Part shown: positions 4,708 through 63,876 of the stretch, in pieces
Numbering within the stretch: the stretch's first letter is position 1
How the letters are laid out: each line of letters starts with the position of its first letter
DNA from: Candidatus Eiseniibacteriota bacterium
Lineage (GTDB): Bacteria; Joyebacterota; Joyebacteria; Joyebacterales; Joyebacteraceae
Assembly (NCBI GenBank): GCA_030622115.1
Contig: JAUXGN010000003.1
Coordinates: 35,465-99,464 of the forward strand
Reading direction: 5' to 3'
Length of the DNA stretch: 64,000 bases
Program-made: the position numbers and the translations under genes
Notes under the pieces: model-generated
Databases searched by the model: none
What the model was told of the DNA's origin: nothing
What the model saw: the letters and a program-made list of their open reading frames with translations, nothing else

Positions 4708-4709
4708 AA

Positions 4710-10177: not shown

Positions 10178-10198
10178 TGAGACAGCGGAGGGTGTACT

Positions 10199-11188: not shown

Positions 11189-11207
11189 ATAGCCTCGAAC
11201 TCACCAG

Positions 11208-11290
11208 TCCAGCACTAGTCCAGGATGTGAAGTTCGCCCAGCACCAGCCCACCACGCGGATCTGATCCAGCACTAGTCCAGGATGTGAAG
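11208..11290. repeat. 25-bp direct repeat (TCCAGCACTAGTCCAGGATGTGAAG) at 11208-11232 and 11266-11290; the second copy is the last 5 codons plus stop of the minus-strand gene 11273..11908
   Basis: Exact duplicate read from the sequence; the reverse complement encodes …LHILD*. Confidence 0.8.
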
Positions 11291-11908: not shown

Positions 11909-11922
11909 TCGATGCCTCTACG

Positions 11923-12762: not shown

Positions 12763-12814
12763 TCGCTCCTATGCTCTTCTGCGTACGTTCCAATCCACTG
12801 AGTGGCTGCCCTCG

Positions 12815-13447: not shown

Positions 13448-13454
13448 TGTTCGG

Positions 13455-24189: not shown

Positions 24190-24464
24190 CACTTCCTCCT
24201 TCACCGCTTGTGTTTTCGGTTCGAGCGCCTCAGGGACAAGAACGGGATCGAAGCGCATTGTCGTACGCCCGATCCCGGTGCAAGTCACGCGGATACAAAC
24301 AGAGAAACATTACCGCGCTCAGAGCTACCGTTGGGCATCGCTTTCACGATGCGTCAGATCATCAATGTCGGCTCTTTCAGGACGGTAGCAGTGTGGTGAG
24401 CGGTGTTTCTCCCCTGATGCAGCTGCCGGATGCGAATGCCAGCTTGATTGTTTCTATTGAAGAT

Positions 24465-24520
24465 ATTGTAGCATAATTTACCGAGCGCGTCAAGGAGCAT
24501 CCGCTCGATGACGCGCTCGG
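24465..24520 (-). promoter_or_regulatory. near-consensus sigma70-type promoter on the minus strand (-35 TTGACG, 17-bp spacer, -10 TACAAT) whose -35 is embedded in a 12-bp perfect palindrome (CCGAGCGCGTCA-N16-TGACGCGCTCGG); drives the C25 gene through a ~270-nt 5' UTR
   Basis: Hexamers and spacing read from the reverse complement of 24465-24493; palindrome arms at 24481-24492 and 24509-24520. Confidence 0.5.
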
Positions 24521-24603
24521 TTTACCATATGCTCTGCAAGTGATGCCTGCCCAACTCCTACACCCGCAGTGCGCATCACTGCAACCGCCACTCACACACA
24601 AGA

Positions 24604-24649
24604 AGGCGGACAGAACCTGATCCCGACATGGGACCGGTCCTGTCCGCCT
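24604..24649 (-). terminator. hairpin (10-bp stem AGGCGGACAG/CTGTCCGCCT with an inner GGACCGGTCC palindrome) followed on the minus strand by UCUUGUGUGUG; candidate terminator of the upstream C25 gene
   Basis: Inverted repeat read from the sequence 26 nt downstream of the stop at 24675. Confidence 0.45.
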
Positions 24650-24674
24650 CTCTCGAACCTCGATTGTGGTGATA

Positions 24675-27600
24675 CTACTTCAGGAGTACCATCTTGCGCG
24701 AGTCTTCCCAATCGCCGATGGCGGCACGGACGAAGTAGACTCCGGATGAGACCTGCCTGCCACGCGAGTCCTTCCCGTTCCAGACGACCAAGTGGTTCCC
24801 CGCGGTAGCTGGTCCATCAACCAGGACTGAGACAAGCCTGCCGGCGACATCGTAGACGGCGAGGCGTGCGTGCGCGCCCTCGAGACCTACCGCGTAGCTG
24901 ATCGTCGTGGTGGGGTTGAACGGGTTTGGTGCATTCTGGTGGAGCCGGTTCGGGAGCGCTGCAGAAGCGTCAGCCACTCCCGTGTTACCGATGAGATTGA
25001 GATCCGTGAGGATCCTGGTCACGTATTCGAGATGCGTCGATGGATATCCCGATCCCGTCATGCCGCCGAGGATCACCGGTATCATGTAGCGGTGTGATCC
25101 GGTTGCAGGATCGACATAGTGCGTTCCCCTGCACTCGAGACTCTGGTCGCTCCAGAGCAGAGCACTGCCGGGCTCGCCGTCGGGGCCGACCTTGCTGATG
25201 AACTGATCCGGATCGGCCTGGTAGTCATACGTGAAGTAGAGTCCATCCATGACAGTTCCGGTTGCGCCATCCAGTGACTGGACGTTCCCGATGCTCTTCC
25301 CGTTCCCCATCGCGTACGTGCAATGGAAGCGCTCCCACAGATCCAGCGTCGTTTCGGTTCCGTTGACCTTGTACTGGCCACCGAAGTTCGGTTCCTCAGT
25401 GTAGAGGCTTCCGCCGTCGTCCACGAACGCGATGAGCTGAGCAGCTTCATCGTCCGACATCGGTACGTTGAAGCCGCCGAAGTTGATGACCCCGCCCAGA
25501 TAGATGATGAGGTCGAAGGGACTGAGATCTTCCGGCAGCGTCTCGGAGTAGATGTAGAACTCGCCTATCGAGTCAAGCGTCTGAAGCCACGGCACTTCCG
25601 TGCCGTCTTCCTCAGAGAAGGTATCGTTCACTCCGTCGAACGGCATGTCGCCGTCGTCGGCGTCCCACAGGAGTACCTTGGCGTTCACGCTTGCTGCTAT
25701 CGGACCGACGCAGTCAACAAGACTGTCCTCGTTGCCCCAGAGATCTCCCGCCATCACCGCGTAGTAGTATGGCTCCGCATTCGACACGGTTGTGTCGTCG
25801 AGAGTCGTGCCGTCGGGCACGAGCAGCCCGGAAGCGATGGGCGTGAGTCCGGACACGTCCGCGAATGGCGTGGACTCGCGGTAGACCTTGTAGTACGCAA
25901 AGTCGCTGGGGGCGACATAGCCCGTCCAGTCGAGTTCCACGAGGCCGCCCAGATCGAACGGATCGGCAGCTATCAGCGTGCCGATGGGGTCGGGCGCGGT
26001 CGTGTCCAACGGCTGGTCGACGATTGTGAGTGTCTCTTCGTGAGGAAGCATGTCGGGTCCCGTCACCATCATGGAGAGAGCGCCCTCGACAGTCGGATCG
26101 ATGTCCACTTCAGCGATTCCATCGGCGCCCGTTGTGAAGACCGCATCGATCTCATCGTTGTGAAGGTAGATGGACACGCCTTCAATGGCTCCATCATCAT
26201 TCTGAATCGTTACAACGAACGGCTCACCGGATAGCGGGATACTCGTGGGGCAGTTAACGGTCGCGGTTGAAGGCTCGTGAGACCATATCCTCATCTCAGG
26301 ATCACCCAACAGATTCAGCTCGTAGAGCACGTAGCGCGTGTAGCCATCGGTACGGGCTTCGCTGACGAACACATCCTTGTGAGCAGCGTGGGCCACGCCG
26401 ATGATATCGTTGCCGTGGTTGTACAGCTGGCTGAAGAACTCGCGGTCGTACCGATCGGACGTTCCGTTGCCTGGTCCACCGGGCGAGCCCCATCCATAGC
26501 GGCTGTTGCCGACAAATGCCACGCCGCCGCCGGGAGAGTTCATCCAGTGCTCGGCGATACAGTCGTAGTCGATGGCGGCCGGATAGCATCCGATCGTCAC
26601 GAAGATGCCCTGCCTGTCTCCGTTGCTCATGCCATCGAAGTCGGAGCGGTAGAGTGACGAGCTGCCGATGCAGAGGACACTGTAGTGGGCGTGGCCGTTG
26701 TGATTCGTGATGTTCTGACCGGCGTTGAGATTGCTCATGGTTCGCGATTTCGTCAGGAGTCCGTTCGTTTCATAGAGCTTCGTGATCGGATCGAACTGTC
26801 CGGGAACCGATTCATCGTCGATGTAGTTCTTGCAGATGGCATGGTCGGTCCATGGATCGGTCCACAGCACTTCCGCGAGGAAGAGCATGTTCTCCTGGTA
26901 GTCGGTAGGGAGCGTGTTCCCGGCAGGAGAACCCTCGTACGTGAGAACCTTCGTGACGAAGCGCGATGCTTCCGTCGTCGAGTTCACTGGAGCGCGGCCG
27001 ACATAGACGTCCGCATAGAGATCGATGCTGTCCTGCGTGATCTCGCCCCATGTGCTGTCGCCATCGCCGTTCCACGTGCCATCGAGGTCGCTGTAGTAGA
27101 GATCGCAGATCGGCGAATTCTCGCTTCCGCTTCCGACGTTGTATGCGTAGGCTGCACGCGCCGGCACGATATTGGTGTCGCCTCCCAGGAGAACCCACAG
27201 AGTGCCGTGGTTCTCGTAGTAGTCGATGATACAGTTTCGGACCATCTCCGCGTTGTCGACACCGTCGTAGTTCGCATAGATCCAGGAGGTCGAAACAATC
27301 TCTGTTGTGAGGCCCTTCTGTTCCTTCCAGTCGGCAAGAGGCTGGAAGAGGGACTCGTATGTTGAGCTTGTCACGATGAGATAGTCGACTTGATCATCTC
27401 TTGTCGTGAGGGTGGAAGCCGCCTCAACATCATACGGATTGACCACGAAGTCCCTGACCCTCCCGACCACAACCGCATCCGCCCGTTCAGATCGTCTCGC
27501 GGGGACCCGAGATACTCTCGTGTCCCGCTCGAGTTCGAGAGTGACAGTGATGCTCTCATTCAGCGTAAGCCTGCCGTCGAGCGGACTGTACTGGAGTGGG

Positions 27601-28079
27601 TAGACCGCAACCGTCGCAACCCGATGTCCGGACATGTTGCCCGTGTCCATGAGGCGACAGGCCATCGAAGGATACGGCGCAGGCGACTCATATACGCTCG
27701 GTTCGGGGTCGATCCACTCCGGGATCCTCGGGAGCGAGAGCGGGATCTGCGGCTGGACCGGTCGGATTCTGAATCTTTCGGGAAGCACGCTCACTCGCGC
27801 GACCGTCGCTGATGCGCTCGAGGCCGTCATCCCGTCAGGGAGAGCGAATCGTATGAATGCGACCGGGAGTTCCGGGCGACCCAGTTCGAGCGTGGATCTC
27901 AGGCCTTTCATCTCTATGACATCGTACCCGGTCACGCGTGAGGTCACGAGTTCGTGAGACGAGAACTCCATCGAATATGCAAGTGAAGGGGCCGCGAGCG
28001 CGGCCGGAGCCCAGAGACACATGATCATGACGACCACGAGGGCTGAAGACAATACGATCCGACGCTCAGACAGCCGCAT
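24675..28079 (-). CDS. second secreted C25 (gingipain-like) cysteine peptidase with T9SS C-terminal sorting domain; paralog of 19471..24189
   Basis: Start 'MRLSERRIVLSSALVVVMIMCLWAPAALA' with the AAGGAGG SD at a 6-nt spacing. The ORF's first ATG at 28085 abuts the SD. Shared 'LLGGDTNIVP', 'GHAH…' and 'IDYDCIAEH' blocks. C-terminus 'APNPFNPTTTISY…GVYFVRA…RKMVLLK'. Confidence 0.75.
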   Translation of the reverse strand: MRLSERRIVLSSALVVVMIMCLWAPAALAAPSLAYSMEFSSHELVTSRVTGYDVIEMKGLRSTLELGRPELPVAFIRFALPDGMTASSASATVARVSVLPERFRIRPVQPQIPLSLPRIPEWIDPEPSVYESPAPYPSMACRLMDTGNMSGHRVATVAVYPLQYSPLDGRLTLNESITVTLELERDTRVSRVPARRSERADAVVVGRVRDFVVNPYDVEAASTLTTRDDQVDYLIVTSSTYESLFQPLADWKEQKGLTTEIVSTSWIYANYDGVDNAEMVRNCIIDYYENHGTLWVLLGGDTNIVPARAAYAYNVGSGSENSPICDLYYSDLDGTWNGDGDSTWGEITQDSIDLYADVYVGRAPVNSTTEASRFVTKVLTYEGSPAGNTLPTDYQENMLFLAEVLWTDPWTDHAICKNYIDDESVPGQFDPITKLYETNGLLTKSRTMSNLNAGQNITNHNGHAHYSVLCIGSSSLYRSDFDGMSNGDRQGIFVTIGCYPAAIDYDCIAEHWMNSPGGGVAFVGNSRYGWGSPGGPGNGTSDRYDREFFSQLYNHGNDIIGVAHAAHKDVFVSEARTDGYTRYVLYELNLLGDPEMRIWSHEPSTATVNCPTSIPLSGEPFVVTIQNDDGAIEGVSIYLHNDEIDAVFTTGADGIAEVDIDPTVEGALSMMVTGPDMLPHEETLTIVDQPLDTTAPDPIGTLIAADPFDLGGLVELDWTGYVAPSDFAYYKVYRESTPFADVSGLTPIASGLLVPDGTTLDDTTVSNAEPYYYAVMAGDLWGNEDSLVDCVGPIAASVNAKVLLWDADDGDMPFDGVNDTFSEEDGTEVPWLQTLDSIGEFYIYSETLPEDLSPFDLIIYLGGVINFGGFNVPMSDDEAAQLIAFVDDGGSLYTEEPNFGGQYKVNGTETTLDLWERFHCTYAMGNGKSIGNVQSLDGATGTVMDGLYFTYDYQADPDQFISKVGPDGEPGSALLWSDQSLECRGTHYVDPATGSHRYMIPVILGGMTGSGYPSTHLEYVTRILTDLNLIGNTGVADASAALPNRLHQNAPNPFNPTTTISYAVGLEGAHARLAVYDVAGRLVSVLVDGPATAGNHLVVWNGKDSRGRQVSSGVYFVRAAIGDWEDSRKMVLLK

Positions 28080-28130
28080 CTGCATCCTCCTTGAGCCGAC
28101 AATAACAACCATAACTACAACTATTACCAT

Positions 28131-47020: not shown

Positions 47021-47338
47021 TTGAGACTCATCCTCAAGTACTCGAACAGGCGTCTCTACGACACGCATCAGGGAAAGGTCATCACCCTTCTTGAACTGTC
47101 CGAGCTGGTGCTCGCCGGCGAGGACATCCACGTTGAGCGGAAGGGTACGGGCGAGGATATCTCGGCCGTCACGATGATCCACGCGATCCTGGAATACGTG
47201 AGACGCAATCCGGATGATGAAGCCAGGGCAGATCTGGCCGAGCGAGTGCTTCACGCGCTTCGTGGATCGTTCGAGGACGATGATAGGGCCACCCGCGGCG
47301 CGACTGAGAGCGAGAAGACGAGAGTCGGGGCGATATGA
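47021..47338 (+). CDS. PhaR-like DNA-binding protein (PHA/PHB accumulation-regulator DNA-binding domain)
   Basis: TTG start with an AGGAG SD 5 nt upstream; 'ILKYSNRRLYDTHQGKVITLLELSELV' matches the PhaR N-terminal 'KKYPNRRLYDT' signature. Confidence 0.6.
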   Translation: MRLILKYSNRRLYDTHQGKVITLLELSELVLAGEDIHVERKGTGEDISAVTMIHAILEYVRRNPDDEARADLAERVLHALRGSFEDDDRATRGATESEKTRVGAI

Positions 47339-49620
47339 CGGGCACAGCCGACAATCGGGGCCATATGACGGGCACAGGCAACAAGAGAAAGGGCTTCGCG
47401 GAGCTCGTCCGCAATAGGGACTTCACGCTGCTCTGGATGGGGTCATTTGCGTCTCAGATGGGTGACCATCTGAATCTGATGGCCTTGACCGCGCTCATCT
47501 TCGCGATCTCAGGTGGTGAGAAAACGAGCGGTCTCGAGTTCTCAAAGATCCTGCTTCTGTCCAGCGCGCCCGTTCTGTTCATCGGTCCGATCTCAGGGGT
47601 CTATGCAGACCGGATCAGCCGTCGCACCCTGATGATAGCGTCCGACTTCATACGGGCGCTGCTCGTCGCCGCAATTGCGCTGGTCTCGAGTTCCATGGTC
47701 ATCGTGTACATCCTGATATTCCTCGTGTTCACCATCAACCGCTTCTACCTGTCGGCCAAGTCGGCCGCACTCCCGCAGATCGTGAAGCACGACAATCTCA
47801 TGTCCGCGAATTCGCTTCTGAACATCGCGGGTGTGGCAGCGATCATAGTCGGTCCCGCGGGCGGAGGACTTCTCGTCGAGCGATTCGGCTTCACAGTCGG
47901 GTTCTTCGCGGACTCCGCGACCTATGTTGTTTCGGGGACCCTCGTTGCCTTCATGACCTTGAGAGGCATTACGGGAGTGGCCGCGGCGCGCGAGGAAGAT
48001 CTGGCCGTCAGAAGAAAGAAGGTCGGGGAGGCGGCGCGCCATGCGCTTCACGCGCACAGCCGCGTGGAATTTGCGGAAGATGCGGTTCGCATCGGCCACG
48101 AGATCGCGGCGCCGATAGGAGAGGAAGTCGAGGTGATCAGCTCGGCCTACCAGAGGCTGATCGCAGATCTCAAGGACGGCATAGCTCAGATGAGGGGGCA
48201 TGCGATAGTCATCTACTCGACAGTCTCCGTGTCGAGCCTGATGTTCGTCATCGGATTCACCATGGTTGCACTGCCCGTCCTTGTCAGGAACGAGTTCGCG
48301 ATGGGGCCCGCGCAACTCGGCATACTGTTCTCGCTTGCCGGCGTGGGAATGCTCGTAGGATCCGTTCTCGTTGGGCACTTTTTCTCACACACACCGCGTC
48401 GAGCCATCATCGGCGTGAGCTTCTTCCTATACGGAGCCATTGTCATCGGGATTGCGCAGTCATCGACGATCGTTCTTGCGTCGGTCGGTGTTCTCTTCAT
48501 GGGTGTTTTCATAGCGCCGGCTATGATCACCTGTGACACAGTCGTGCACGAGACGATGCCGAAGGACAGTGTCGGCAAGGCGTTTGGTTTTCGCGACATG
48601 GTGTCCAAGGCGGCGTTCGGACTCGCCGGGATCATGTCCGGTGTTATAGTGGACATCATCGGCCCACGGAATCTCCTGGTTTCGGTGGGTCTCGTTGCGA
48701 TGGCCTACGCCGGCATCTCGGTCTTTCTATTCGCCGACACATCGAGGCTCAATCTCCTCAATGCATATCCGCTTCTTCGCGTAACCGCGAGGCTGGCGGC
48801 GGCGCTGCCCCGGCGCATCAGCTACTGGATCGTTGTCCCCCTCGCCGATCTGGCCGCGTTCGTCCTCAAGACCAAGCGGAGGCATGCAGAGGAGAATGCC
48901 GGGCACGTGCTCGGGAAACCGTCGAACAGCAGGGAGGCGAAGGTCCTGGCCAGGAGAATGTTCAGGAGCTACGGGCGTTACTATGCGGATTTCCTCGGTT
49001 TGGGTGGCCGGCACGTGAACAGTGTGGGTGACAGGGTGAAATTCCGAGGGATCGAGCATCTTCAGGGGGCGCTCAGCATTGGGAAGGGAGTCATCTTCGT
49101 CTCGGCTCATCTCGGCAGCTGGGATATGGGTGGAGCGGCCATGGCGGCCGCAGAGGGTCTACCCGATCTCTCGGCCGTCGTCGAGCCGGTCTCCGAGGAT
49201 GCATCAGAGAACGCCGTCTCTGCCTTGCGGGAGCGCGGTGGCGTCAACGTCATTCCGTTGGGCCAAACGCTCAAGGTGTGGCGGGCGCTGCGGAGAAACG
49301 AGATCGTCTTCCTTCTGGGAGAGCGACTTGTTGGCGCCGATGGTGTCGATGTGGAGTTCTTCGGGAAACGGACAGTGCTGCCGAGAGGGGCGGCCTACCT
49401 CGCTCTGAGGAGCGGGGCGCCCATCGTTCCAGGCTTCTGTATACGTAGGTCTGATGGAAGCTACGAGGTGCTCATTGAGCAACCAATAGAGACTGATGTC
49501 GGTGACAATTTCGACGCAGCCGTGAGAATATACACGCAGAGACTCGCCGGTGTTATCGAGCGCTACATCGCGCGCTACCCGGATCAGTGGTGCATGTTGC
49601 AGCCTGTCTGGACGCCGTGA
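47335..49620 (+). CDS. fusion protein: N-terminal MFS transporter (~12 TM) plus C-terminal lipid-A-biosynthesis-type (LpxL/HtrB/PatA-like) acyltransferase domain
   Basis: ATGA overlap with the PhaR-like gene; MFS motif 'GPISGVYADRISRR'; C-terminal 'FVSAHLGSWD' HX4D acyltransferase motif and 'YPDQWCMLQPVW' ending typical of PF03279 enzymes. Confidence 0.7.
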   Translation: MTGTADNRGHMTGTGNKRKGFAELVRNRDFTLLWMGSFASQMGDHLNLMALTALIFAISGGEKTSGLEFSKILLLSSAPVLFIGPISGVYADRISRRTLMIASDFIRALLVAAIALVSSSMVIVYILIFLVFTINRFYLSAKSAALPQIVKHDNLMSANSLLNIAGVAAIIVGPAGGGLLVERFGFTVGFFADSATYVVSGTLVAFMTLRGITGVAAAREEDLAVRRKKVGEAARHALHAHSRVEFAEDAVRIGHEIAAPIGEEVEVISSAYQRLIADLKDGIAQMRGHAIVIYSTVSVSSLMFVIGFTMVALPVLVRNEFAMGPAQLGILFSLAGVGMLVGSVLVGHFFSHTPRRAIIGVSFFLYGAIVIGIAQSSTIVLASVGVLFMGVFIAPAMITCDTVVHETMPKDSVGKAFGFRDMVSKAAFGLAGIMSGVIVDIIGPRNLLVSVGLVAMAYAGISVFLFADTSRLNLLNAYPLLRVTARLAAALPRRISYWIVVPLADLAAFVLKTKRRHAEENAGHVLGKPSNSREAKVLARRMFRSYGRYYADFLGLGGRHVNSVGDRVKFRGIEHLQGALSIGKGVIFVSAHLGSWDMGGAAMAAAEGLPDLSAVVEPVSEDASENAVSALRERGGVNVIPLGQTLKVWRALRRNEIVFLLGERLVGADGVDVEFFGKRTVLPRGAAYLALRSGAPIVPGFCIRRSDGSYEVLIEQPIETDVGDNFDAAVRIYTQRLAGVIERYIARYPDQWCMLQPVWTP

Positions 49621-51101: not shown

Positions 51102-51671
51102 ATGCTTGACAAGGCAGAACTGGGGCGGCGGGTGAAGCTCGAGAGGCTGGCCAAGGGTATGACCCTGAAGCAGGTCGCAGACGGCTCCAACATGTCTCCT
51201 ACACACATATCAGAGATTGAACGTGGAAGGACGTCACCGACGGTCGGAGCGCTGCTGCGCATTGCGCACGCTCTGGGCAAGCCGGCGACCTACTTCGTTG
51301 AAGAGGAACAGCTGCCGAGCGTTTCAGTAGTGCGTAAGCACGAGCGCCCCCATCATGTTGTCACGGACGGCGACAGGACCGTGGCTCAGGTCGACTTCCT
51401 GACCACCGGGATACCGGCTGGACGACTGCGTGTGGTGGAGTTGCAGGACTTTGAGTCAGGCCCACTGCAGACTCGTCCACACGATGGCGAGGAGATCCTT
51501 ATCGTTGAGTCGGGGAACATCAAGGTGACAATCGACGGCGATGAGCACGAACTGGCGGCGGGTGACTGCATTCAGTTCAAGGGCAGCATGTCTCACCGGA
51601 TCGAGAAGCAGGGTTCGGGCGGCGCACGGGTATTCTGGGTAACGACGTCGGAAGGTGTGCTGTCGCACTAG
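51102..51671 (+). CDS. XRE-family HTH transcriptional regulator with C-terminal cupin domain
   Basis: 'MTLKQVADGSNMSPTHISEIERGRTSPTVGALLRIAHALG' HTH_3 pattern; cupin-like 'EEILIVESGNIKVTIDGDEHELAAGDCIQF'. Confidence 0.8.
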   Translation: MLDKAELGRRVKLERLAKGMTLKQVADGSNMSPTHISEIERGRTSPTVGALLRIAHALGKPATYFVEEEQLPSVSVVRKHERPHHVVTDGDRTVAQVDFLTTGIPAGRLRVVELQDFESGPLQTRPHDGEEILIVESGNIKVTIDGDEHELAAGDCIQFKGSMSHRIEKQGSGGARVFWVTTSEGVLSH

Positions 51672-51720
51672 GCAGTTCGAAGTCCTTTCTCTTCGCCGAT
51701 TGGGTGAAAGGAGCAGATAC

Positions 51721-53670
51721 GTGCGTCCGTCGCGCATGGCTGCGTTTGCCATCACAGTCGTATGCTTGTTCGCACTCGTGGTTGGCGGCGCAGCAATAGG
51801 CCACGCCGGGATCGCCGATATCCCCGGCCTGTCTGATTCAAGTCTTGAGGCTCTCTCCGGACGCGGGTTTGTTGCCGTCTCAGGAGGTGCATCGAATCCC
51901 GCACAGGGCTATTCGATACTCCGCAAGCAGGGCGTCGATCCATTCATCACTGCCGACATCGTGCTGCGAGCGACGCGTCTCTTCCTCGACGAGATCCTTC
52001 TTACATTGGAGGAAGAGGAGCTCTACGAGCGTCTCGAGGAGCTGTCTCGTGAGATGGTGCGGCTGAGCGGGGACCAGTATCTGCGCGCAACCGACTCGAC
52101 TGTCAGAGAGGCGGCGCGTCTCAACCTGGCTTTCTTTTCGGTCGGTCTGAGCCTGCTGGACCCGGAGTTCTTCCCATCCGAGACGGCGCTGGGACTGGTC
52201 GAGAGGGAACTCGCGCTTATCGAAGAGGGAACGGTTGTGGGGTTCTCGCCCATCATGGGCGCTACGCCGCTTGACGGCGTAGCTGGGCCGGGCGAAGATT
52301 ACTCACACTACATCTCTCAAGGCCACTACGCTTCGAGTGAGCGCCTCAGGAGATTTCATAGAGCGGTCACGTGGTACAGCAGAATGGCATTCGCTCTGCC
52401 CGAGGGCCGAGTCGAGGACTACCGTCTCACCATTCAGGCTCTGCTCGTCGTGCGCGCTCTGGAGGAAGAGGCCGGTGATTGGTTGGAGCTCTGGAGCCTT
52501 GTTTATGATCCGTTGCTCTTCTTCCATGGTGGAGCGGGTGATCCGACCGTCCTTGATTACATGGAGATCGCGGGTGACGTCTTCGGTGAGGAGTTCGGCA
52601 TCGAGCTTCTCTCCGATCAGGAACTCGTCATGCGTTTCGCGGAGCGAGTGGGGGAGATTGCCCCTCCCCATTTCGAGACACATGAGCTGAGAGGTCTTCG
52701 CTTCCTGTGTCCGAGGGACTTCCACTACAAGCAGGGCTTCCGACGATTGGGGAGTGCGTCCGACGACGCGCCTTCGGTCGCCTTGAGTCTGATGGCGCTC
52801 CTCGGTTCCAGGGCCGCAAGATCTGTGCTCGACGAGCAGGACGCGTTTGACCGTGAGATCTACCGGTTGGGATACCGCGAACTCGAACTCGAGCTGGAGA
52901 AGGCCACCTACGGGGACTGGACGAGGGATCTGTACTGGAGTTGGCTCCACGCCATCTCTGCGCTCTTCGAACCGTCGGGGAATCAACTTCCCGACTTCGC
53001 AAGGACGCGTGCGTGGGAGACGCGGATGCTATCGACCGCAGCGGCCGCGTGGGCCGATATGCGGCGAGCGCCTGCCGGGCATCTGGATCCGGCATTCAGT
53101 CTCAGGGGCGCACTGCCGGAGGTGGAGGGGCACTGTCTTACGGTCGAGCCCTACCCGGAGCTTTATGTCCGGCTCAGAGACCTTCTGGACAATCTCAGGG
53201 ACAAGCTATGGAAGAGCTACCTGCTTGACGACTCCATCGCGGCCAGGATGGACACATATCGCGACTTCCTCGTTTCTCTGGAAGGGGCATGCACCACTCC
53301 TATCGGATATGCGGGGCAGCTGGGCGCTGAATCGGACGCCCCACTGAAGCAGGCATCCGGCTCGGGTTTCATTGGAGGAGTCGAATCCGGCAGACAGCGG
53401 AGATCGCCCACTGAGAGCGCGGCCTTCATCGCGTTGGTATACCGGGACTTCGGAACCGGGACGGTCATCGAGGTCGCTGTGGGGGATCCCGATCTGATCT
53501 ACATCAGAGTCGGGCAGGGAGAAGACGAACTGATCTTCGGAGGTGTGATCTCCTCGTTCTACGAGTTCAAGACGACGGGGGAAGAAGCCCTCACGACCGA
53601 CGAATGGCTGAGAGAGCTCGACGGCTCTCCGCCAAGGCCCGAGTGGGTGATGGTTTTTCTTGAGGAGTAG
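51721..53670 (+). CDS. large secreted/membrane-anchored hypothetical protein
   Basis: GTG start 7 nt after an AGGAG SD (internal ATG at 51736); hydrophobic N-terminal anchor 'MAAFAITVVCLFALVVGGAAIGHA'; helical, acidic, no recognised catalytic motif. Confidence 0.5.
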   Translation: MRPSRMAAFAITVVCLFALVVGGAAIGHAGIADIPGLSDSSLEALSGRGFVAVSGGASNPAQGYSILRKQGVDPFITADIVLRATRLFLDEILLTLEEEELYERLEELSREMVRLSGDQYLRATDSTVREAARLNLAFFSVGLSLLDPEFFPSETALGLVERELALIEEGTVVGFSPIMGATPLDGVAGPGEDYSHYISQGHYASSERLRRFHRAVTWYSRMAFALPEGRVEDYRLTIQALLVVRALEEEAGDWLELWSLVYDPLLFFHGGAGDPTVLDYMEIAGDVFGEEFGIELLSDQELVMRFAERVGEIAPPHFETHELRGLRFLCPRDFHYKQGFRRLGSASDDAPSVALSLMALLGSRAARSVLDEQDAFDREIYRLGYRELELELEKATYGDWTRDLYWSWLHAISALFEPSGNQLPDFARTRAWETRMLSTAAAAWADMRRAPAGHLDPAFSLRGALPEVEGHCLTVEPYPELYVRLRDLLDNLRDKLWKSYLLDDSIAARMDTYRDFLVSLEGACTTPIGYAGQLGAESDAPLKQASGSGFIGGVESGRQRRSPTESAAFIALVYRDFGTGTVIEVAVGDPDLIYIRVGQGEDELIFGGVISSFYEFKTTGEEALTTDEWLRELDGSPPRPEWVMVFLEE

Positions 53671-53685: not shown

Positions 53686-54846
53686 TCAGACCACCGAGTG
53701 ATCCAGATCGACATCGCCTTCCGAGAACCGCCTCGCGTTCAACCTGTCGATATCCAGATCCGGCTTCTGTCCGAGGATGAGCTGCGAGAGAAGGGATGAC
53801 ACCTTCGGCGCGATCATGAACCCATGACCGCTGAAGCCGTTCGCCTGGAAGAACCCGTCGACTCCATCAGTCTCACCGATGATAGGCTGCGCATCCGGCG
53901 TTACATCGTAGAGGCCCGCCCACTGACGCACCACCTTCACGTGCTTGAGAGCCGGCATGAGGAAACTCAGCTTGCGCGACATCATCGTCAGGAAATCGAT
54001 ACTCGATTCCTCGTTGAAACCAGGAGCCTCGTCCGCGTAGGCGAACCCGCCTATCACTGACCCATGCTTCACTTGGCGAAAGTAGATGCCGAAACTGAAC
54101 GAGATTATCATCGGGTCGAAGAAACGTTCCAGTGGTTCCGTCACGAGAATCTCCCGGCGATAGGGAGTGATAGGGATTTCCACGTCCACAGTCCGAGCCA
54201 GCGGAACGCTGTGGCTTCCTGCTGCGTTCACAACACGAGGTGTGTTGATGATCCCTCGCTCGGTCTCGACGCCCACGATTCGATTCCCCTCACGGAGGAT
54301 ACGAGTCACCGGCGTGAAGAGCTCGATCTCGACGCCAAGTCTCACTGCAGCTTGAGCGTACGCCTTCGTTGCGAGAAAGGGGTTCGCGCTTGCGTCCGTT
54401 GGGCAGTAGGTGGCCATGCGAACACCGTCGGTGTTCACTTGTTTGACCACACGAGACGCGATTTCCTCAGGCTGGAGGATCTCCACATCGAGTCCGAGTC
54501 TGCGCTGGAGTTCGAAGTTCTTGTGGAACTGCTCTACGTCCTCGTCCGTGTAGGCAAGAACGAGATAGCCTCCCTGCAGAAATTCGATGTCGGCATCCAG
54601 CTCTTCCTCGATCGTCTTGAAGATGCGTACGCTGTCCATGGCAAGCTGCGCGTTCGGTTCCGTGCTCCACTGCTGCCGGATCCCGCCTCCACATCTGCCC
54701 GTGGCTCCGCTCGACAGATACTCCGACTCGAGTAGAACGCAATTCGTCATCCCGCCCTTGGCGAGGTAGTACGCGACAGCAGCGCCAATGATGCCGCCAC
54801 CTATGATCACGCAGTCAGCGTTGGTTCTCATGACGCCTCTTGTCAA
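53686..54846 (-). CDS. FAD-dependent oxidoreductase, sarcosine oxidase beta / PDH1-beta-like amino-acid dehydrogenase subunit
   Basis: 'DCVIIGGGIIGAAVAYYLAKGG' dinucleotide fold; DAO family; last of four overlapping minus-strand genes. Confidence 0.8.
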   Translation of the reverse strand: MTRGVMRTNADCVIIGGGIIGAAVAYYLAKGGMTNCVLLESEYLSSGATGRCGGGIRQQWSTEPNAQLAMDSVRIFKTIEEELDADIEFLQGGYLVLAYTDEDVEQFHKNFELQRRLGLDVEILQPEEIASRVVKQVNTDGVRMATYCPTDASANPFLATKAYAQAAVRLGVEIELFTPVTRILREGNRIVGVETERGIINTPRVVNAAGSHSVPLARTVDVEIPITPYRREILVTEPLERFFDPMIISFSFGIYFRQVKHGSVIGGFAYADEAPGFNEESSIDFLTMMSRKLSFLMPALKHVKVVRQWAGLYDVTPDAQPIIGETDGVDGFFQANGFSGHGFMIAPKVSSLLSQLILGQKPDLDIDRLNARRFSEGDVDLDHSVV

Positions 54847-55118
54847 TCCTCGTCACTTGCACCGGCGAGGATTCCTATCTCCACCGGCATAGTTGGCGGT
54901 CGGTCCAGAAGGGGTTTCATGTCGGCGACTTCTCCGCCGATCCTCTCTGTGATGATCCGAGCGATGAGACGCGAGCATGTCCTGCCCTGGCAGGGCCCCA
55001 TTCCTGTTCGGAGGACCCGCTTCAGTTCCTCCAGCGTGGTCAGACCCGAGTCGATAGCCTCGACTATCTCACCGTAGGAAACATCCTCACACCTGCATAT
55101 GATCACGTCGTCTTTCAA
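54843..55118 (-). CDS. BFD-like [2Fe-2S]-binding small subunit
   Basis: 91 aa; '[12 protein letters not shown]…GPCQGRTC' CxC…CxxxxC pattern; ATGA overlaps on both sides. Confidence 0.7.
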
Positions 55119-55615
55119 CTCCGGTCACCTCTGCGTCTGAAGTGCCTCACTGCCATCACGTGCTCTACCGGGACCTCGATCGATACGAGGGGTGTTCTGT
55201 CGAGCGCCTTGGTGTTGATCACACGAACGACGAGCGCGTCGCAGACAGCCTCGCCCTCTCTGTTGAGGGCCGACACGATCTCGCCCTTTTCGGGGAGCGG
55301 CGCGTACTCGTACGGGAGCACAACAACTCCCACACCGTCGGATCGACTCGCGTCGACGACGAATATGGCGAGGCCCGGACACGCGCTGATGCATAGCCCG
55401 CACCCGTTGCACTTGTCGTAGTCGACCGTCGGGGTGTTGTTGATGTCGCCCTCTATGATAATGGCGCCTTTCGGGCACGCCTGCACGCAGGGATTGCACG
55501 GGATGGATTCCACGCATTCGATGACGACAACGGGCCCCGCCTTCAACCTCGCGGGTGGCGGTGACAGCCGCCTCAATCCCTCGCCCCTCAGTATGCCGTC
55601 CCGTCTGTGGTTCAT
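55115..55615 (-). CDS. 4Fe-4S dicluster ferredoxin-domain subunit
   Basis: Two 'CxxCxxCxxxCP' motifs ([21 protein letters not shown]). Confidence 0.75.
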
Positions 55616-57075
55616 TAGGAACCAACCTTGAACATCTTCCTCTTTCCTTCTCGCGCCGTAGCGCCGAACGGGCCCGCCCGGAGTGTCTTGAGACTGCTTG
55701 TCGCCTCAGATCTCAGTCGCTTGAGCTCTTCTCTATCGACCTCTCTGCACAGTAGCTCAGCAGCCGCGAGCCCGGCAAGTCGCCCCTCTATCATAGCAGT
55801 TGACGCCTCTTCGATCCCCGATGCGTCGCCTGCTATGAAGACGCCGGAGATACTGGTCTCAAGATCCGGGTCGTGTGCCGCTACCGGCCCTCCAAGCTCG
55901 GCCACGTAGGTCTCTCGACATCCCATCTGGAAGGCCAGCTCGCAGTTCGGTGTCAGCCCGACAGCGAGACACACGGTATCCACCGAAAGGGTGCGCTCGG
56001 ATCCCGGCACAGGCTGCCAGTGATCATCCACGCGGCATATCTCAGCGGACTCCACGCGGTCGGGCCCCGTGACCCTCTGAACAGTATGCGATGTCAGGAT
56101 CGGTACGCCCGCCCTTCGTATCTTCGCGGCGTGTACGTGGTAGCCTCCCACCTCCGGCGCGGCATCGATGACGGCCGCAACGTCAACGCCGGCCTGCAGC
56201 AGTTGATATGCGACGATCAGACCGATGTTTCCCGCTCCCACCATGAGCACGCGTTTCCCGGGAACGACACCATGCACGTTCATCAGAGTCTGAACGGCTC
56301 CAGCGCCGTAGACGCCCGGGAGGTCGCAATTCTCGAACGCCAGCATGTTCTCGGAGGCGCCCGTCGCAAGGATCACGGCGTCCGCTCTGAGTTCGATATG
56401 ACGTCTGTTTGCCAGAAGCGAGAGTGTCCGGTCTGGATAGAGTCCGAGAACTGTCGTTCCCAGCATGAGCTTGACAGGAAGACCGCTGAGGTTCGCGATC
56501 AACTCGTCCCCAATGTCGATTCCGCGGATCTGCGCGTAGTGCTCGCGCGAGCCGAAGAACATGTGGGTCTGCTTGATCAGCTGCCCGCCGGGGACATCGT
56601 TCTCATCAATGACGATCGTTTCTACTCCCATGCGTCCGGCGTATGCTGCTGCCGACAGTCCCGCCGGTCCCGCGCCCACGATAGCGAGCGATACTGTCGC
56701 GACATCCTTGGCGCCTCGTCTCGCTTCGGTCGGCCGAGAACCCGGGGAGAAGGATTCGGTGAGCAGGATGGCTCCCTTTCCTCGCTGGGTTTCGACCTTC
56801 ATGTCTTCCTTGAGTGGGGTCACGCAGGTCATGATGTTCGGGATTCCGTCGACCGTCATCAGACATGACGAGCATCGTCCTATGGCGCAGAAGAAGCCTC
56901 TCGGACGCTTTCTCTTGATGCTCTCCCGAAACACTCGAATGCCGTTCGCGTGAAGCGCGGCTGCGATACTCTCGCCCTCGAATCCGAGTAGCTTCCTGCC
57001 ATCGAATTCGAATTCGATCTCTCGACCGCGGTCAAACTCGAGTATCGGGTGTTGGGTCAGTCGCACGACCGGCAT
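55615..57075 (-). CDS. sarcosine oxidase alpha / PDH1-alpha-like NAD(P)/FAD-dependent oxidoreductase subunit with N-terminal 2Fe-2S region
   Basis: N-terminal '[19 protein letters not shown]'; '[16 protein letters not shown]' and a second GxGxxG '[15 protein letters not shown]' pyridine-nucleotide-disulfide oxidoreductase fold. Confidence 0.8.
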
Positions 57076-57278
57076 CTCCGAAGCTGGAGTCTTTTACTCA
57101 GACAGTAACGTTTTGACGCTCGCACCGTCTGGGAGTAAGATGGGGTTCAAGAGAACGCTCCCACCTTGCGGGAGCGTCTCTCCGAACACCTTCGATGACG
57201 ATAGCACTCCCGGAGGCCGGGGGCAATACGAATGTCCCAGCAAGAGCGCCGTTGTTCCTGAGGTGGGTGGGAGATGAC

Positions 57279-58097
57279 ATGAGAGTGGCCACAGCTATGA
57301 CGATAGCCGGTTCGGATTCATGCGGTGGGGCCGGAATCCAGGCTGATCTGAAGACGATGATCGCCTTTGGTGTGCACGGGACGAGCGCACTTACGTCGAT
57401 CACGGCACAGAACACCCTCGGTGTGGGGAAGACCCTTCACCTTCCGGCCGAGCTCGTCGGAGAGCAGATCGACGCGATCATGGATGACATGGGGGCGGAT
57501 GCCGCGAAGACCGGAATGCTGGCTACCGAGGAGATCATGGAGGTCGTCGCTGATCGTATCCGAACACGCAGGATTCCCAACGTTGTCGTGGACCCGGTCA
57601 TGGTGGCGACGTCCGGCGTGAGACTGATGGATGAGAAGGCGACTGACGTATTCGTGAGGGAGATTCTCCCTTTGGCGCTTGTGATCACTCCCAATGTAGA
57701 CGAGGCTCGAGTTCTGGCCGGATTCACTGTGGACACACTGGCAGCGATGAGAGATGCGGCGCGCGCGATCTACGATGTGACCGGAGCATCTGTCCTGGTC
57801 AAGGGTGGACACATGGGCGGAGACGCGACTGATGTCCTCTACGATGGAGTGGAATTCCGCGACCTCACGGGCAGGAGGATAGAGGGAGGAAGAATCCACG
57901 GGACCGGTTGCACGCTTGCGGCCGCGATCGCGTCCGGGCTCGCGTGCGGCGACGCTCTCACGCGAGCCGTCGAGAACGCGAAAGACTTCGTGACCCGCGG
58001 CATCGAGGAATCGTTCGACATCGGGAGAGGCAGTGCGCTCTTCAACCACACGGTTCATGCCGTGTCTGCCGGGGGTGACGGCAGGATGGAGGAGTAA
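57279..58097 (+). CDS. thiD: hydroxymethylpyrimidine/phosphomethylpyrimidine kinase
   Basis: '[20 protein letters not shown]' N-terminus and '[11 protein letters not shown]', 'VKGGH' blocks; the six-frame ORF has a spurious N-terminal extension. Confidence 0.85.
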
Positions 58098-58098
58098 A

Positions 58099-59037
58099 TT
58101 GAAGCACGTGTTTGGACCAGTACCATCACGAAGACTCGGTCTATCTCTCGGTATCGACCTCCTGACACCAAAGATCTGCACGATGGACTGTACATACTGC
58201 GAGCTGGGCCCGACGACCGACAGGAGAATCGAACGAGGTCGTTTCGTCAACCTGGATGAGGTCCTGGACGAGCTCAGGACGCGTCTTGCCGAGGAGCCGG
58301 ATGTGGATTTCGTCACGTTCTCGGGTTCCGGTGAGCCGACGCTGAGCCTTGATCTAGGGCCTGCGATCGACGGTGTCCGGGTGGTGACGGATACGAGGAT
58401 AGCGGTTCTCACGAACGGGAGCCTGATGACGGATCCCGATGTCCGGAAGGCTCTGATGAGAGCCGATGTCGTGATCCCCTCCGTGGATGCCGTTTCCATG
58501 CAGGCGTTTCAGCGTATCAACAGGCCCCATCCCGGCCTGGATCCTGAGGCCATTGTCGAGGCCATAGCCACTTTTACGGCGGAGTTTGACGGTGAGGTCT
58601 GGCTCGAGACCGTAATCGTGAGGGGCGTGAACGACGATCTTCAAGAGGTGTCGCGACTTGCGCACGCGGCCGGTTTGATCTCTCCGGCAAGAATTCACGT
58701 GAACACCGTCGTGCGACCACCGGCCGTGGCCGGAACTGAGGCGGTAGGTGACGGTCGCCTGCACGAGATTGCGGAGGCTCTCGGTTCCCTTGCGGAGGTG
58801 GTGGCGCCGCCGAGCGTTCAGTCGCACCAGTTCGCAGCCGACTCGGTGGAGGTGATCATTGACATGGTGGCCCGGAGACCTGTCACGATCGGAGACATAG
58901 CATCAGCGCTGGGCTTCAGCCTCGCCGAAGCCGCGAAGATTGTTGGATCACTCCTCGATGGCAAGCGGTTAGAGGTTGTACGGCATGGGGATCTGCTGTA
59001 CTATGTACCCATTGCTCGCAAAGGGGAGGGGTCGTGA
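58099..59037 (+). CDS. radical SAM protein (CX3CX2C) with a C-terminal winged-helix-like region; specific function unknown
   Basis: TTG start 5 nt after a GGAGG SD (GTG at 58108 is also possible); 'FGPVPSRRLGLSLGIDL…CTMDCTYCELG' cluster motif. Confidence 0.65.
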   Translation: MKHVFGPVPSRRLGLSLGIDLLTPKICTMDCTYCELGPTTDRRIERGRFVNLDEVLDELRTRLAEEPDVDFVTFSGSGEPTLSLDLGPAIDGVRVVTDTRIAVLTNGSLMTDPDVRKALMRADVVIPSVDAVSMQAFQRINRPHPGLDPEAIVEAIATFTAEFDGEVWLETVIVRGVNDDLQEVSRLAHAAGLISPARIHVNTVVRPPAVAGTEAVGDGRLHEIAEALGSLAEVVAPPSVQSHQFAADSVEVIIDMVARRPVTIGDIASALGFSLAEAAKIVGSLLDGKRLEVVRHGDLLYYVPIARKGEGS

Positions 59038-59756
59038 AGCTTGCTATAAAGGGATTCGACCATATGTCCCTTGTTGACTGGGATGGAATGGTCGCTGCGA
59101 CGCTGTATCTGCCTAGCTGCAATTTCCGATGTCCCTATTGTCACAACGCCGGGCTTGTTCTCTTGCCCGACCAGTACGAAACCATCTCGCTGGATGATGT
59201 GATCTCTTACGTCACCGAGCACAATGATTTCCTCGACGGTGTGTGCATCACCGGCGGTGAGCCGTGTATGCACAAGGGTCTTCCCAATCTGATCCGGACT
59301 CTCAGAGACTCCGGCATGCGCGTCAAGCTGGACACCAACGGCTCGTTTCCCGACATGCTCGACCGACTCATTGCAGATGAGTTGGTGGATTATGTGGCGA
59401 TGGACGTCAAGGCTCCATTGGACTTCGAGTCATACGCGAGGAGCGCTGGCATCACTGATCGTCGTATTTTCAACAAGGTTCGTGAGAGCATCGATATCCT
59501 GTTGGATGGTCGGGTCGACTATGAGTTCCGAACGACCGTCGTGCCCACACTGCACCGAGCCAGCGATATGAAGCTGATCGCGGAACAGATTCGGGGAGCG
59601 CGACGCTACGTCATCCAGAACTACATCGCTCGTGACACGCTGGATCCCGCCTTCATGGATGAGTCTCCCTACAACTCAGAGCGTCTGAACGAATTCAAGG
59701 AGATGGTGGGGCGCAAGGTTGAGGAGTGTGTCATCAGAGGGAAGGTTGATGTGTAG
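59034..59756 (+). CDS. NrdG/PflA-like glycyl-radical-enzyme activating protein family radical SAM protein
   Basis: ATGA overlap with the upstream gene; 'DWDGMVAATLYLPSCNFRCPYCHNAGL' and 'GVCITGGEP' match class III RNR activase family proteins. Confidence 0.7.
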   Translation: MKLAIKGFDHMSLVDWDGMVAATLYLPSCNFRCPYCHNAGLVLLPDQYETISLDDVISYVTEHNDFLDGVCITGGEPCMHKGLPNLIRTLRDSGMRVKLDTNGSFPDMLDRLIADELVDYVAMDVKAPLDFESYARSAGITDRRIFNKVRESIDILLDGRVDYEFRTTVVPTLHRASDMKLIAEQIRGARRYVIQNYIARDTLDPAFMDESPYNSERLNEFKEMVGRKVEECVIRGKVDV

Positions 59757-63087: not shown

Positions 63088-63876
63088 TCAAGGTGTACTG
63101 CTGTCGCCTAGCTCGGCGAGGATTTGCTTCGCTACCTTTCGGCCCGAGAGAAGCATGCCTCCGAAGATTGGGCCCATTCTGTAACCGCCGTGGACCGCTG
63201 CTGCAGCCATGCCGGCCACGTAGAGTCCGGGGAAAACCTCGCCGGTCTTCTCGACGACCGTCTTCTCACCGTTTTCGGCCCACATACTCTTCTCGCCCAC
63301 AATGCCTCCGGTCTCCGTCGCGAGTCTGACGCCCATCTTCCGAACGGTGACATGAACGATGTCCGAATCATGGCCGGTGGCATCCAGTACGATCTGCGCG
63401 GAAATCGACAGCGGGTCAACGTGAAGCCCGGCTGCGGTAACGGGGCTCCAGAGGATGACCACGCCTGAGATGCGGTCGCGTGAGAAGAGGACGTCTTCGA
63501 CCTTGCACGTGTTGAAGATCTTGAGGCCTGCCTTGCTTGCACCGTACGCAAGAGCCGCGGCAGTTTGCACTGCGTCCGCCGTATAGTATCCCTCGTCGTG
63601 AGGACGGTAGTCTATTCCGAAGTCGTCCATGATCGGCAGGGCGTCCTTCCGGACAACGATCTCGTTGAAGAGCATTCCTCCGCCCCAGATGCCACCGCCG
63701 GTTGACAGCTTGCTTTCGAAGAGAGCGACATTCCTCCCGGTCTCAGCCAAGTATCTGCCGGCGACCAGTCCGGCCGGTCCGGCTCCCACGATGGCCACAT
63801 CCAATTCCAATGACTCCGAGAACTTCTCGAAGAACCGCTGTGATATGGCTCTCGTAACGGCAACATCACTGATCAT
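63088..63876 (-). CDS. thi4: Thi4-family thiazole synthase (archaeal/sulfide-dependent type)
   Basis: '[20 protein letters not shown]…GGGIWGGGMLFNEIVV' and 'VLDATGHD' blocks; GGAGAG SD. Confidence 0.8.
   Translation of the reverse strand: MISDVAVTRAISQRFFEKFSESLELDVAIVGAGPAGLVAGRYLAETGRNVALFESKLSTGGGIWGGGMLFNEIVVRKDALPIMDDFGIDYRPHDEGYYTADAVQTAAALAYGASKAGLKIFNTCKVEDVLFSRDRISGVVILWSPVTAAGLHVDPLSISAQIVLDATGHDSDIVHVTVRKMGVRLATETGGIVGEKSMWAENGEKTVVEKTGEVFPGLYVAGMAAAAVHGGYRMGPIFGGMLLSGRKVAKQILAELGDSSTP

Follow-up and report, generated by a model that had tools for sequence, protein, structure and literature searches.

A probable bacterial counterpart of the four-subunit L-proline dehydrogenases of Thermococcales in a Candidatus Eiseniibacteriota genome

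Dye-linked L-proline dehydrogenase occurs in hyperthermophilic archaea, which served for the CHARACTERISED enzyme comparison, as two kinds of complex, one an alpha-beta-gamma-delta heterotetramer and the other an alpha4beta4 hetero-octamer (PMC8704557). The genes of the heterotetramer of Thermococcus profundus are pdhA (alpha), pdhF (gamma), pdhX (delta) and pdhB (beta), consecutive orthologues are found in Thermococcus litoralis in the order pdhA, pdhF, pdhX, pdhB, and the gene pair PH1363/PH1364 of Pyrococcus horikoshii encodes the alpha4beta4 enzyme (PMC4364671). The T. profundus enzyme is cytosolic and passes electrons from L-proline to 2,6-dichlorophenolindophenol (DCIP) or ferricyanide, while neither NAD(P)+ nor cytochrome c is reduced (PMC4575208, Table S2). 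Here, a gene cluster that very likely encodes a four-subunit PdhAFXB-type amine dehydrogenase is described in a bacterial genome. The analyzed stretch of DNA, termed the window, comprises 64,000 nucleotides of Candidatus Eiseniibacteriota bacterium (assembly GCA_030622115.1, contig JAUXGN010000003.1, positions 35,465 to 99,464 of the forward strand), and all coordinates refer to it. The names PDH1 for PH1363/PH1364 (structure 1Y56) and PDH2 for the four-subunit enzyme follow the usage reported for two papers of 2005, by Tsuge et al. and by Kawakami et al. Kawakami and colleagues also reportedly described, in 2004, an NADH dehydrogenase activity of the T. profundus alpha subunit. The cluster in the window consists of four genes:

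55615..57075, minus strand: alpha subunit (PdhA-like), 486 aa, ATG start
55115..55615, minus strand: gamma subunit (PdhF-like), 166 aa, ATG start
54843..55118, minus strand: delta subunit (PdhX-like), 91 aa, TTG start
53686..54831, minus strand: beta subunit (PdhB-like), 381 aa, ATG start; the maximal open reading frame (ORF) extends to 54846, starts with TTG and encodes 386 aa

These genes form a single operon. An earlier note, made from the sequence alone, had listed four genes of 486, 166, 91 and 386 aa at 53686-57075, and the exact minus-strand coordinates agree with this description except that the beta subunit is likelier 381 aa long. The alpha and gamma genes overlap by 1 nt (TGATG) and the gamma and delta genes by 4 nt (TTGA), and a beta gene starting with TTG would overlap delta by 4 nt, with the TTG overlapping the delta stop codon. 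An ATG at 54831, located 5 codons downstream of this TTG and preceded by AAGAGG, appears to be the more likely beta start; because of the AAGAGG element and the 100% identity of the 381-aa protein to database protein P0001, the beta gene was taken as 53686-54831. Full-length homologues of all four subunits were present in 34 fetched loci and database relatives number in the thousands, which identifies the four ORFs as real genes and not chance ORFs. The assignment is directly supported by gene order, coupling, domain architecture, four-subunit homology and strict conservation of cofactor ligands. It is probable that the product is a soluble alpha-beta-gamma-delta flavin/iron-sulfur amine dehydrogenase, the bacterial counterpart of T. 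profundus PdhA/PdhF/PdhX/PdhB and of the second P. horikoshii enzyme, with L-proline as the likeliest substrate.

Thermococcales loci were obtained by a search with the 1y56_B sequence, and the clusters of P. horikoshii OT3 (L043) and Thermococcus celer (L044) were compared with the window. In P. horikoshii the four genes encode 482/168/88/377 aa (the beta protein is P0330) and in T. celer 478/167/90/388 aa, which confirms the earlier statement that the subunit sizes of the window, here 486/166/91/381 aa, match those of the Thermococcales alpha/gamma/delta/beta subunits. Both archaeal clusters display the order alpha-gamma-delta-beta, 4-nt overlaps and the same Pfam architecture as the window. 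The alpha subunit is 47% (P. horikoshii) and 50% (T. celer) identical over its full length, the gamma subunit 42% and 44%, and the delta subunit 45% in both comparisons; the similarity covers the full length of all four subunits. The characteristic elements of the Thermococcales four-gene enzymes, namely an N-terminal cluster of four cysteines and a pair of GxGxxG motifs in alpha, eight cysteines in gamma and four in delta, are all found in the window.

The resemblance to PDH1 is of a different kind, and the label "PDH1-type" that the earlier note had attached to the operon had to be replaced. PH1363/PH1364 form an alpha4beta4 enzyme without a ferredoxin subunit, and the window contains the T. 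profundus pdhAFXB type (PMC4364671, PMC8704557). In PDH1 (1Y56), which has an orthologue in Pyrococcus furiosus, two subunits are present and the four-cysteine domain is located at the alpha C-terminus, whereas the window encodes a separate delta subunit and a dicluster ferredoxin gene between alpha and delta. The PH1363 alpha subunit lacks the N-terminal cysteine cluster and the second dinucleotide motif, both of which the window alpha subunit has, and binds ATP instead of flavin adenine dinucleotide (FAD) (PMC4575208, Table S2). Nevertheless, the window beta subunit is closest, among solved structures, to the PDH1 beta subunit, delta corresponds to the C-terminal ~90 residues of PH1363, and alpha is homologous to its N-terminal half.

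The cofactor sites can be placed on the sequence as follows:

56824..56889, minus strand: alpha Cys63/68/71/84, predicted [2Fe-2S] ligands, invariant in 12/12 orthologues
56659..56676, minus strand: alpha GAGPAG (residues 134-139), presumed FAD site from a motif scan, aligning with the GxGxxG of SoxA and PH1363
56221..56238, minus strand: alpha GAGNIG (residues 280-285), presumed NAD(P)H site from a motif scan
55379..55516, minus strand: gamma Cys34/40/43/47 and Cys69/72/75/79, two [4Fe-4S] motifs, all 8 Cys invariant in 17/17 orthologues
54975..55097, minus strand: delta Cys8/10/43/48 (CxC...Cx4C), invariant in 20/20 orthologues
54784..54801, minus strand: beta GGGIIG, FAD-binding motif from a motif scan (residues 16-21 of the 386-aa ORF)
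54154..54156, minus strand: beta Arg231, equivalent to PDH1 beta His225, Arg in 106/106 homologues at least 68% identical to the window
53920..53928, minus strand: beta R307-Q-W309 (Arg-X-Trp), proposed flavin mononucleotide (FMN) site at the alpha/beta interface, kept in ~355/358 homologues

The alpha subunit matches the Pfam families Fer2_4 (residues 18-98, 4.8e-30) and Pyr_redox_2 (residues 129-431, 1.4e-36), so that an N-terminal [2Fe-2S] domain is fused to a flavoprotein with two dinucleotide folds (FAD and NAD(P)H sites). The second dinucleotide motif recurs as GAGNVG in the P. horikoshii four-gene alpha subunit, and in the alignments both this motif and the N-terminal cysteine ligands are missing from SoxA and PH1363 (1y56_A). 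In gamma, a 2x[4Fe-4S] ferredoxin-like domain (Fer4 and related 4Fe-4S dicluster models) is followed by a C-terminal region of ~80 aa without a known fold, and its PDB matches are polyferredoxin and RnfB-type dicluster domains only. The delta subunit is a four-cysteine metal domain on which Fer2_BFD (5e-15) and SO_alpha_A3 (5e-13) overlap; its sole PDB match is PH1363 (1y56_A) residues 410-491 (2.7e-9), with the four cysteines conserved. Delta has been equated with the same PH1363 region and the site named Fe-4Cys (PMC4575208, Table S2), and the "[2Fe-2S]" label given by Pfam is for this reason to be treated with caution. All 16 predicted iron-sulfur ligand cysteines (four in alpha, eight in gamma, four in delta) are invariant across orthologues of all phyla, while other cysteines vary. 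The beta subunit, an FAD amine dehydrogenase, matches the DAO family (1.7e-73), and Pfam agrees with the earlier designation of SoxA-like, dicluster ferredoxin, BFD-like and SoxB-like subunits.

These designations raise the question of whether the complex is instead a heterotetrameric SoxABDG sarcosine oxidase, or an alpha4beta4gamma4 enzyme such as HcnABC or an opine or D-hydroxyproline dehydrogenase, which is considered very unlikely. The families are homologous (PMC4575208), in line with the relation to HcnABC and opine oxidases named in the earlier note, and the kinship is a distant one. The SO_alpha_A3 domain is recognised in delta, and the best NCBIfam matches are the soxA (TIGR01372) subfamily for alpha and the soxB (TIGR01373) subfamily for beta. 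However, the scores lie far under the cutoffs (204 vs 1164 bits for soxA, 190.9 vs 529 bits for soxB), and the window alpha subunit has 486 aa compared with ~960 aa in SoxA, without the folate-binding GCV_T half and without accompanying SoxD or SoxG. SoxA in turn lacks the cysteine ligands and the second Rossmann motif of the window alpha subunit. In the three-gene systems of the HcnABC type, the [2Fe-2S] domain forms a small subunit of its own and a dicluster ferredoxin is missing, and their beta subunits are only 23-26% identical to the window beta subunit. An oxidase is also at odds with the host. The seep-associated Candidatus Effluviviacota, a neighbour of Eisenbacteria, are heterotrophs that live by fermentation as strict anaerobes, are rich in peptidases and have a G+C content of 59-70% (PMC11323493); the window has ~60% G+C. 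Because the host lineage is strictly anaerobic and peptide-fermenting, the enzyme is regarded as a dehydrogenase and not an oxidase.

The beta subunit is the putative catalytic FAD subunit of the PdhAFXB-type complex. Among solved structures, the PDH1 beta subunit (1y56_B) is its best match (9.5e-80, ~38-39% identity), followed by SoxB (~1e-42), dimethylglycine dehydrogenase (1e-37) and glycine oxidase (5e-32). In the motif columns, GRCGGGIRQQ, the equivalent of Tyr251, the RxW element and GFSGHGFM are shared with the PDH beta subunits, a set that sets them apart from SoxB and ThiO, and the last of these sites reads GFSGHGFM in the window, GGFK in SoxB and RNGIL in ThiO. The Arg-X-Trp motif has been proposed for FMN binding at the alpha/beta interface in this family (PMC4575208). 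Beta trees were calculated by neighbour joining (NJ) with 300 bootstraps, a simple method whose deep nodes should not be over-read. The references included two annotated ThiO genes that adjoin thiS and a thiazole synthase gene, annotated SoxB, DadA, PDB chains, Thermococcales beta subunits, opine-dehydrogenase-type beta subunits of the Ti-plasmid B1-C-A-B2 arrangement and one beta subunit of a three-gene system (loci L035 and L036 for these last two types). The annotated ThiO references came from plasmids, and a Bacillus subtilis ThiO sequence was used solely as bait. The Eisenbacteria-like beta subunits form a clade with 100% support, which groups with the unclassified bacterium L019, Theionarchaea, Bipolaricaulota, Thermotogaceae and Zixibacteria (77%), and this group is joined by WOR-3 and Marinimicrobia (66%). 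SoxB (100%) and the two Thermococcales beta types (100%) each form their own clade, and the nodes linking the window clade, the Thermococcales clade, a haloarchaeal lone beta subunit and SoxB received 16-43% support. T. celer (L044) carries the four-gene type (3794-7167) and the alpha4beta4 type (11613-13167) within ~6 kb. The beta subunits of these two clusters are mutual closest relatives with 100% bootstrap support, which suggests duplication or gene conversion within Thermococcales.

A different role of the beta subunit was weighed with the following features upstream of the operon:

57076..57194, strand not applicable: intergenic region of 119 nt between the operon and the divergent thiD, a presumed promoter region by position alone
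57195-59756, plus strand: thiD, then a gene for an unassigned radical SAM protein (58033-59037, ~65-nt overlap with the end of thiD), then a gene for an NrdG2-type anaerobic ribonucleotide reductase activase (59034-59756)
63088-63876, minus strand: Thi4-type ADP-thiazole synthase, sulfide-dependent (TIGR00292, 309 bits vs cutoff 148)

Scans for sigma-70-type promoters and terminators around the operon returned sites no more numerous than in shuffled sequence. The thiD gene (hydroxymethylpyrimidine phosphate kinase, TIGR00097, 298 bits, above cutoff) lies 119 nt upstream on the opposite strand, its adjacency is kept in all Eisenbacteria-like loci, and beta has a sub-threshold match to the ThiO model (TIGR02352, 129.7 bits). 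It is nevertheless extremely unlikely that beta is a glycine oxidase of the ThiO type, functionally tied to thiD and providing the dehydroglycine from which thiazole is made. The ThiO match does not reach the cutoff of 250.8 bits and is outscored by the soxB model, and beta is 24-28% identical to the two annotated ThiO proteins as compared with 53% to the Theionarchaeal four-gene beta subunit (L018). Both ThiO sequences fall outside a 95% clade that contains the window beta subunit and all other references except DadA, and the ThiO motif H-x-R-N-G is absent from beta. ThiO acts alone, without alpha, gamma or delta partners, and in the examined loci outside the Eisenbacteria-like lineage no thi genes adjoin the cluster. 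The Rfam scan of the window detected no Rfam element and no thiamine pyrophosphate (TPP) riboswitch. ThiO and ThiG are not needed since a Thi4-type thiazole synthase is encoded at 63088-63876. Clustering of beta with glycine oxidase/ThiO had been named beforehand as the observation that would overturn the dehydrogenase assignment; ThiO was rejected on the grounds of hidden Markov model cutoff, identity, NJ tree, motifs and the presence of Thi4. The gene string 57195-59756 is a mixed one and not a thiamine operon. The Thi4 gene itself represents an archaeal/eukaryote-like thiazole route within a bacterium. The four operon genes should be named neither "sarcosine oxidase" nor ThiO in genome annotation.

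Which substrate the PdhAFXB-type enzyme uses, how its redox centres are ordered and which acceptor it serves in the cell are inferred from these comparisons. At the FAD of beta, a secondary (N-substituted) alpha-amino acid would be oxidised at its C-N bond, and the likeliest reaction would be the conversion of L-proline to delta1-pyrroline-5-carboxylate (P5C), with L-pipecolate and sarcosine as plausible alternatives. Sarcosine is also accepted by the alpha4beta4 enzyme. Electrons would leave beta via the flavin at the alpha/beta interface (Arg-X-Trp motif) and could then reach the N-terminal [2Fe-2S] cluster of alpha by way of the four-cysteine metal centre in delta and both [4Fe-4S] clusters in gamma. 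The last member of the chain would be either the flavoprotein part of alpha with its FAD/NAD(H) site or an acceptor outside the complex.

Whether L-proline is the physiological substrate is judged to be about evenly balanced from the sequence comparisons, as several observations weigh against it. The beta subunit is only 35% (P. horikoshii) and 36% (T. celer) identical to its archaeal counterparts, forms a clade separate from the Thermococcales beta subunits and carries Arg where PDH1 has His225. In the beta phylogeny, a check that the earlier note had proposed against PDH1, HcnC and SoxB, the node joining the window clade to the Thermococcales clade has only 16-20% support in the NJ tree; 1y56_B is the closest solved structure. 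The cluster is not adjoined by a P5C dehydrogenase, proline racemase or proline transporter gene, and a search for such a conserved substrate-indicating neighbour across phyla found heterogeneous contexts. Proline oxidation is also without an obvious acceptor in a strict fermenter. Finally, opine dehydrogenases of the superfamily swap beta subunits on a common scaffold (PMC4575208), and because of this swapping the conserved alpha-gamma-delta module does not fix the substrate.

On the same alpha-gamma-delta scaffold (a PdhAFX orthologue), the Eisenbacteria-like beta subunit could have undergone a substrate shift and act on a different amino acid that is N-substituted or cyclic; candidates are L-pipecolate, N-methyl amino acids including sarcosine, hydroxyproline, D-proline and opine-like compounds. 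This is possible, if somewhat unlikely. It would account for the lower identity of beta (compared with 42-50% for the other three subunits) and for the fixed exchange: His is found at the His225 position in all 252 remaining homologues (13 at 59-61% identity, 119 Theionarchaea/Bipolaricaulota-like, 120 Thermococcales-like). Monaghan and colleagues are said to have mutated His225 as an active-site residue in 2007, in a mutagenesis study of His225 and Tyr251. Beta-subunit exchange is documented (PMC4575208) and the alpha4beta4 enzyme accepts L-pipecolate (PMC4141209). Genes for an Asp/Glu-racemase-family protein and for amino-acid and peptide ABC transporters flank the cluster of a Bipolaricaulota genome (J31), and the window encodes an enzyme that produces piperideine-6-carboxylate (P6C):

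14658-16022, minus strand: L-lysine 6-transaminase (TIGR03251 equivalog, 653 bits vs cutoff 521)

On the other hand, the candidate carboxylate-binding Arg (GIRQQ), the Tyr251 equivalent, RxW and GFSGHGFM are all kept as in the PDH beta subunit, no context gene singles out one alternative substrate, and the lysine transaminase is located 38 kb from the operon. P6C is the six-ring analogue of P5C, and its formation may matter if the dehydrogenase handles pipecolate.

The missing acceptor can be approached in yet another way. By analogy to the lactate dehydrogenase/Etf complex of acetogens, the enzyme might be a flavin-based electron-confurcating amine dehydrogenase, in which proline and reduced ferredoxin together reduce two NAD+; this scheme is regarded as improbable. 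Confurcation could rest on gamma with its ferredoxin-like 2x[4Fe-4S] domain, on the additional [2Fe-2S] and four-cysteine centres and on the presence of an FAD site as well as an NAD(H) site in alpha. In a strict anaerobe, proline, at ~-120 mV, is unable to reduce NAD+ alone, which is consistent with the T. profundus enzyme not reducing NAD(P)+ with proline. A literature search found no proposal of electron bifurcation for this enzyme. If the scheme is correct, the clade-specific His-to-Arg exchange would also indicate that the beta subunits of the Eisenbacteria-like lineage have changed their substrate.

The distribution of the PdhAFXB-type operon was assessed by a tblastn map of all fetched loci, among them 17 Eisenbacteria-like loci, some of which end at contig ends. 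The closest loci (91-94% beta identity) are metagenome-assembled genomes (MAGs) labelled Candidatus Eisenbacteria or "bacterium", and one locus at 71% beta identity is labelled Candidatus Effluviviaceae. The order alpha-gamma-delta-beta is kept in all complete Eisenbacteria-like loci and also in Theionarchaea-like loci (L018, L020), the unclassified bacterium L019, Thermotogaceae (L022) and Bipolaricaulota (L026, L028, L029). L018, labelled "uncultured Thermococci", has Theionarchaea and Methanofastidiosia as its relatives. In the Marinimicrobia loci, a single frame of 686 aa (L032:2375-4435) or 659 aa (L034:51-2030) comprises alpha, gamma and delta with the Pfam order Fer2_4, Pyr_redox_2, Fer4 dicluster, Fer2_BFD; this natural fusion argues that the three subunits are one physical module. 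Zixibacteria-like loci contain delta and beta only, and WOR-3 contains beta alone. The system is thus widespread in anaerobic bacterial and archaeal MAGs, beyond hyperthermophiles. Of the statement that such complexes are best known from hyperthermophilic archaea, it stands that they were characterised there, but they are also common in Eisenbacteria-like, Bipolaricaulota, Thermotogaceae, Zixibacteria, Marinimicrobia and Theionarchaea MAGs.

The surroundings of the cluster differ between lineages. The Eisenbacteria-like neighbourhood is conserved (AIRS-like, membrane protein, NrdG2 activase, radical SAM, thiD, operon, DUF3160, XRE-cupin, glycosyltransferase family GT4), with an ABC-2 transporter sometimes inserted after beta, and in the compared loci none of these neighbours accompanies the cluster into other phyla. 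In the Bipolaricaulota sp. J31 locus (L046:95-13518), the flanking genes encode a branched-chain-amino-acid-type ABC transporter, an Asp/Glu/hydantoin-racemase-family protein, a peptide ABC transporter and an S-Me-THD (DUF917-like) protein, which suggests that the cluster is part of a larger amino-acid or cyclic-amide catabolic island. The Marinimicrobia locus L032 has a sodium:solute symporter (SSF) gene (907-2358) before the fusion, and beta and a C26 peptidase/amidotransferase-like gene follow the fusion in Marinimicrobia. These Bipolaricaulota and Marinimicrobia genes, together with the L-lysine 6-transaminase of the window, are weak context hints on the substrate. A metagenomic relative with 61% beta identity (L045:4666-6705) has a NAD-dependent DNA ligase gene between gamma and delta that splits the otherwise invariant block of four genes. 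Downstream of the L018 cluster (9551-14146), an apparent ~2.8-kb tandem duplication repeats an ORF series of 206/118/121/131/216 aa.

Further features of the window are the following:

19471-28130, minus strand: two tandem C25 (gingipain-like) cysteine peptidases of 1605 and 1151 aa with FlgD_ig-like C-terminal domains, the larger also with FG-GAP/beta-propeller repeats
47335-49620, plus strand: major facilitator superfamily (MFS) transporter domains and a lipid A biosynthesis-type acyltransferase domain in one 761-aa ORF, resembling a lysophospholipid transporter/acyltransferase fusion
51102-53670, plus strand: PuuR-like XRE-cupin regulator (51102-51671) and, with its start overlapped by the regulator, a DUF3160 protein of 671 aa (51655-53670)

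The DUF3160 gene is convergent with the operon and ends 15 nt from the beta stop codon, and the XRE-cupin/DUF3160 pair is located beside the operon in all Eisenbacteria-like loci. In addition to the two C25 peptidases, the window encodes an M3 oligopeptidase, an S9-family peptidase, an S55-like peptidase and an OPT oligopeptide transporter. The earlier proposal that the enzyme oxidises proline or another secondary amine released by the peptidases is backed by the presence of these genes but not by their positions, as ~17 kb separate the operon from the end of the closest peptidase-family gene (S55-like), the OPT transporter is ~7 kb away and no peptidase is co-transcribed; the substrate itself is a prediction.

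With this operon, an enzyme type whose biochemistry was characterised in archaea is extended to an uncultured bacterial lineage of strict anaerobes that abounds in cold seeps and sediments, and the four-gene module proves to be spread widely over anaerobic bacteria and archaea. This spread brings an old gap to the fore, namely the physiological acceptor for the electrons of such proline dehydrogenases, which becomes an acute question in strict fermenters. Leads for enzymology are provided by the alpha-gamma-delta fusion of Marinimicrobia, by the intact NAD(H) site and iron-sulfur ligands that are missing from the crystallised alpha4beta4 enzyme, and by the clade-fixed His-to-Arg exchange in beta.

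Compared with the Thermococcales enzymes, the window complex belongs to a bacterium of anoxic, largely non-thermal sediments and not to a hyperthermophilic archaeon. Its alpha and delta subunits resemble the N-terminal half of SoxA in SoxABDG (PDB 2GAG, 1VRQ), its beta subunit is ~30% identical to SoxB, and the two complexes have FAD in beta and the RxW region in common, whereas SoxABDG is an oxidase of aerobes and the window complex a dehydrogenase in anaerobes. With OdhABC, LhpBEF and HcnABC it shares a superfamily, FAD in beta and alpha, a four-cysteine centre and a [2Fe-2S] cluster (PMC4575208), but these enzymes are membrane-associated, have the [2Fe-2S] cluster on a separate small subunit and do not contain a 2x[4Fe-4S] subunit. 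Within this family, the four-subunit type has the scaffold with its full redox equipment, which is reduced in sarcosine oxidase and in the crystallised alpha4beta4 enzyme.

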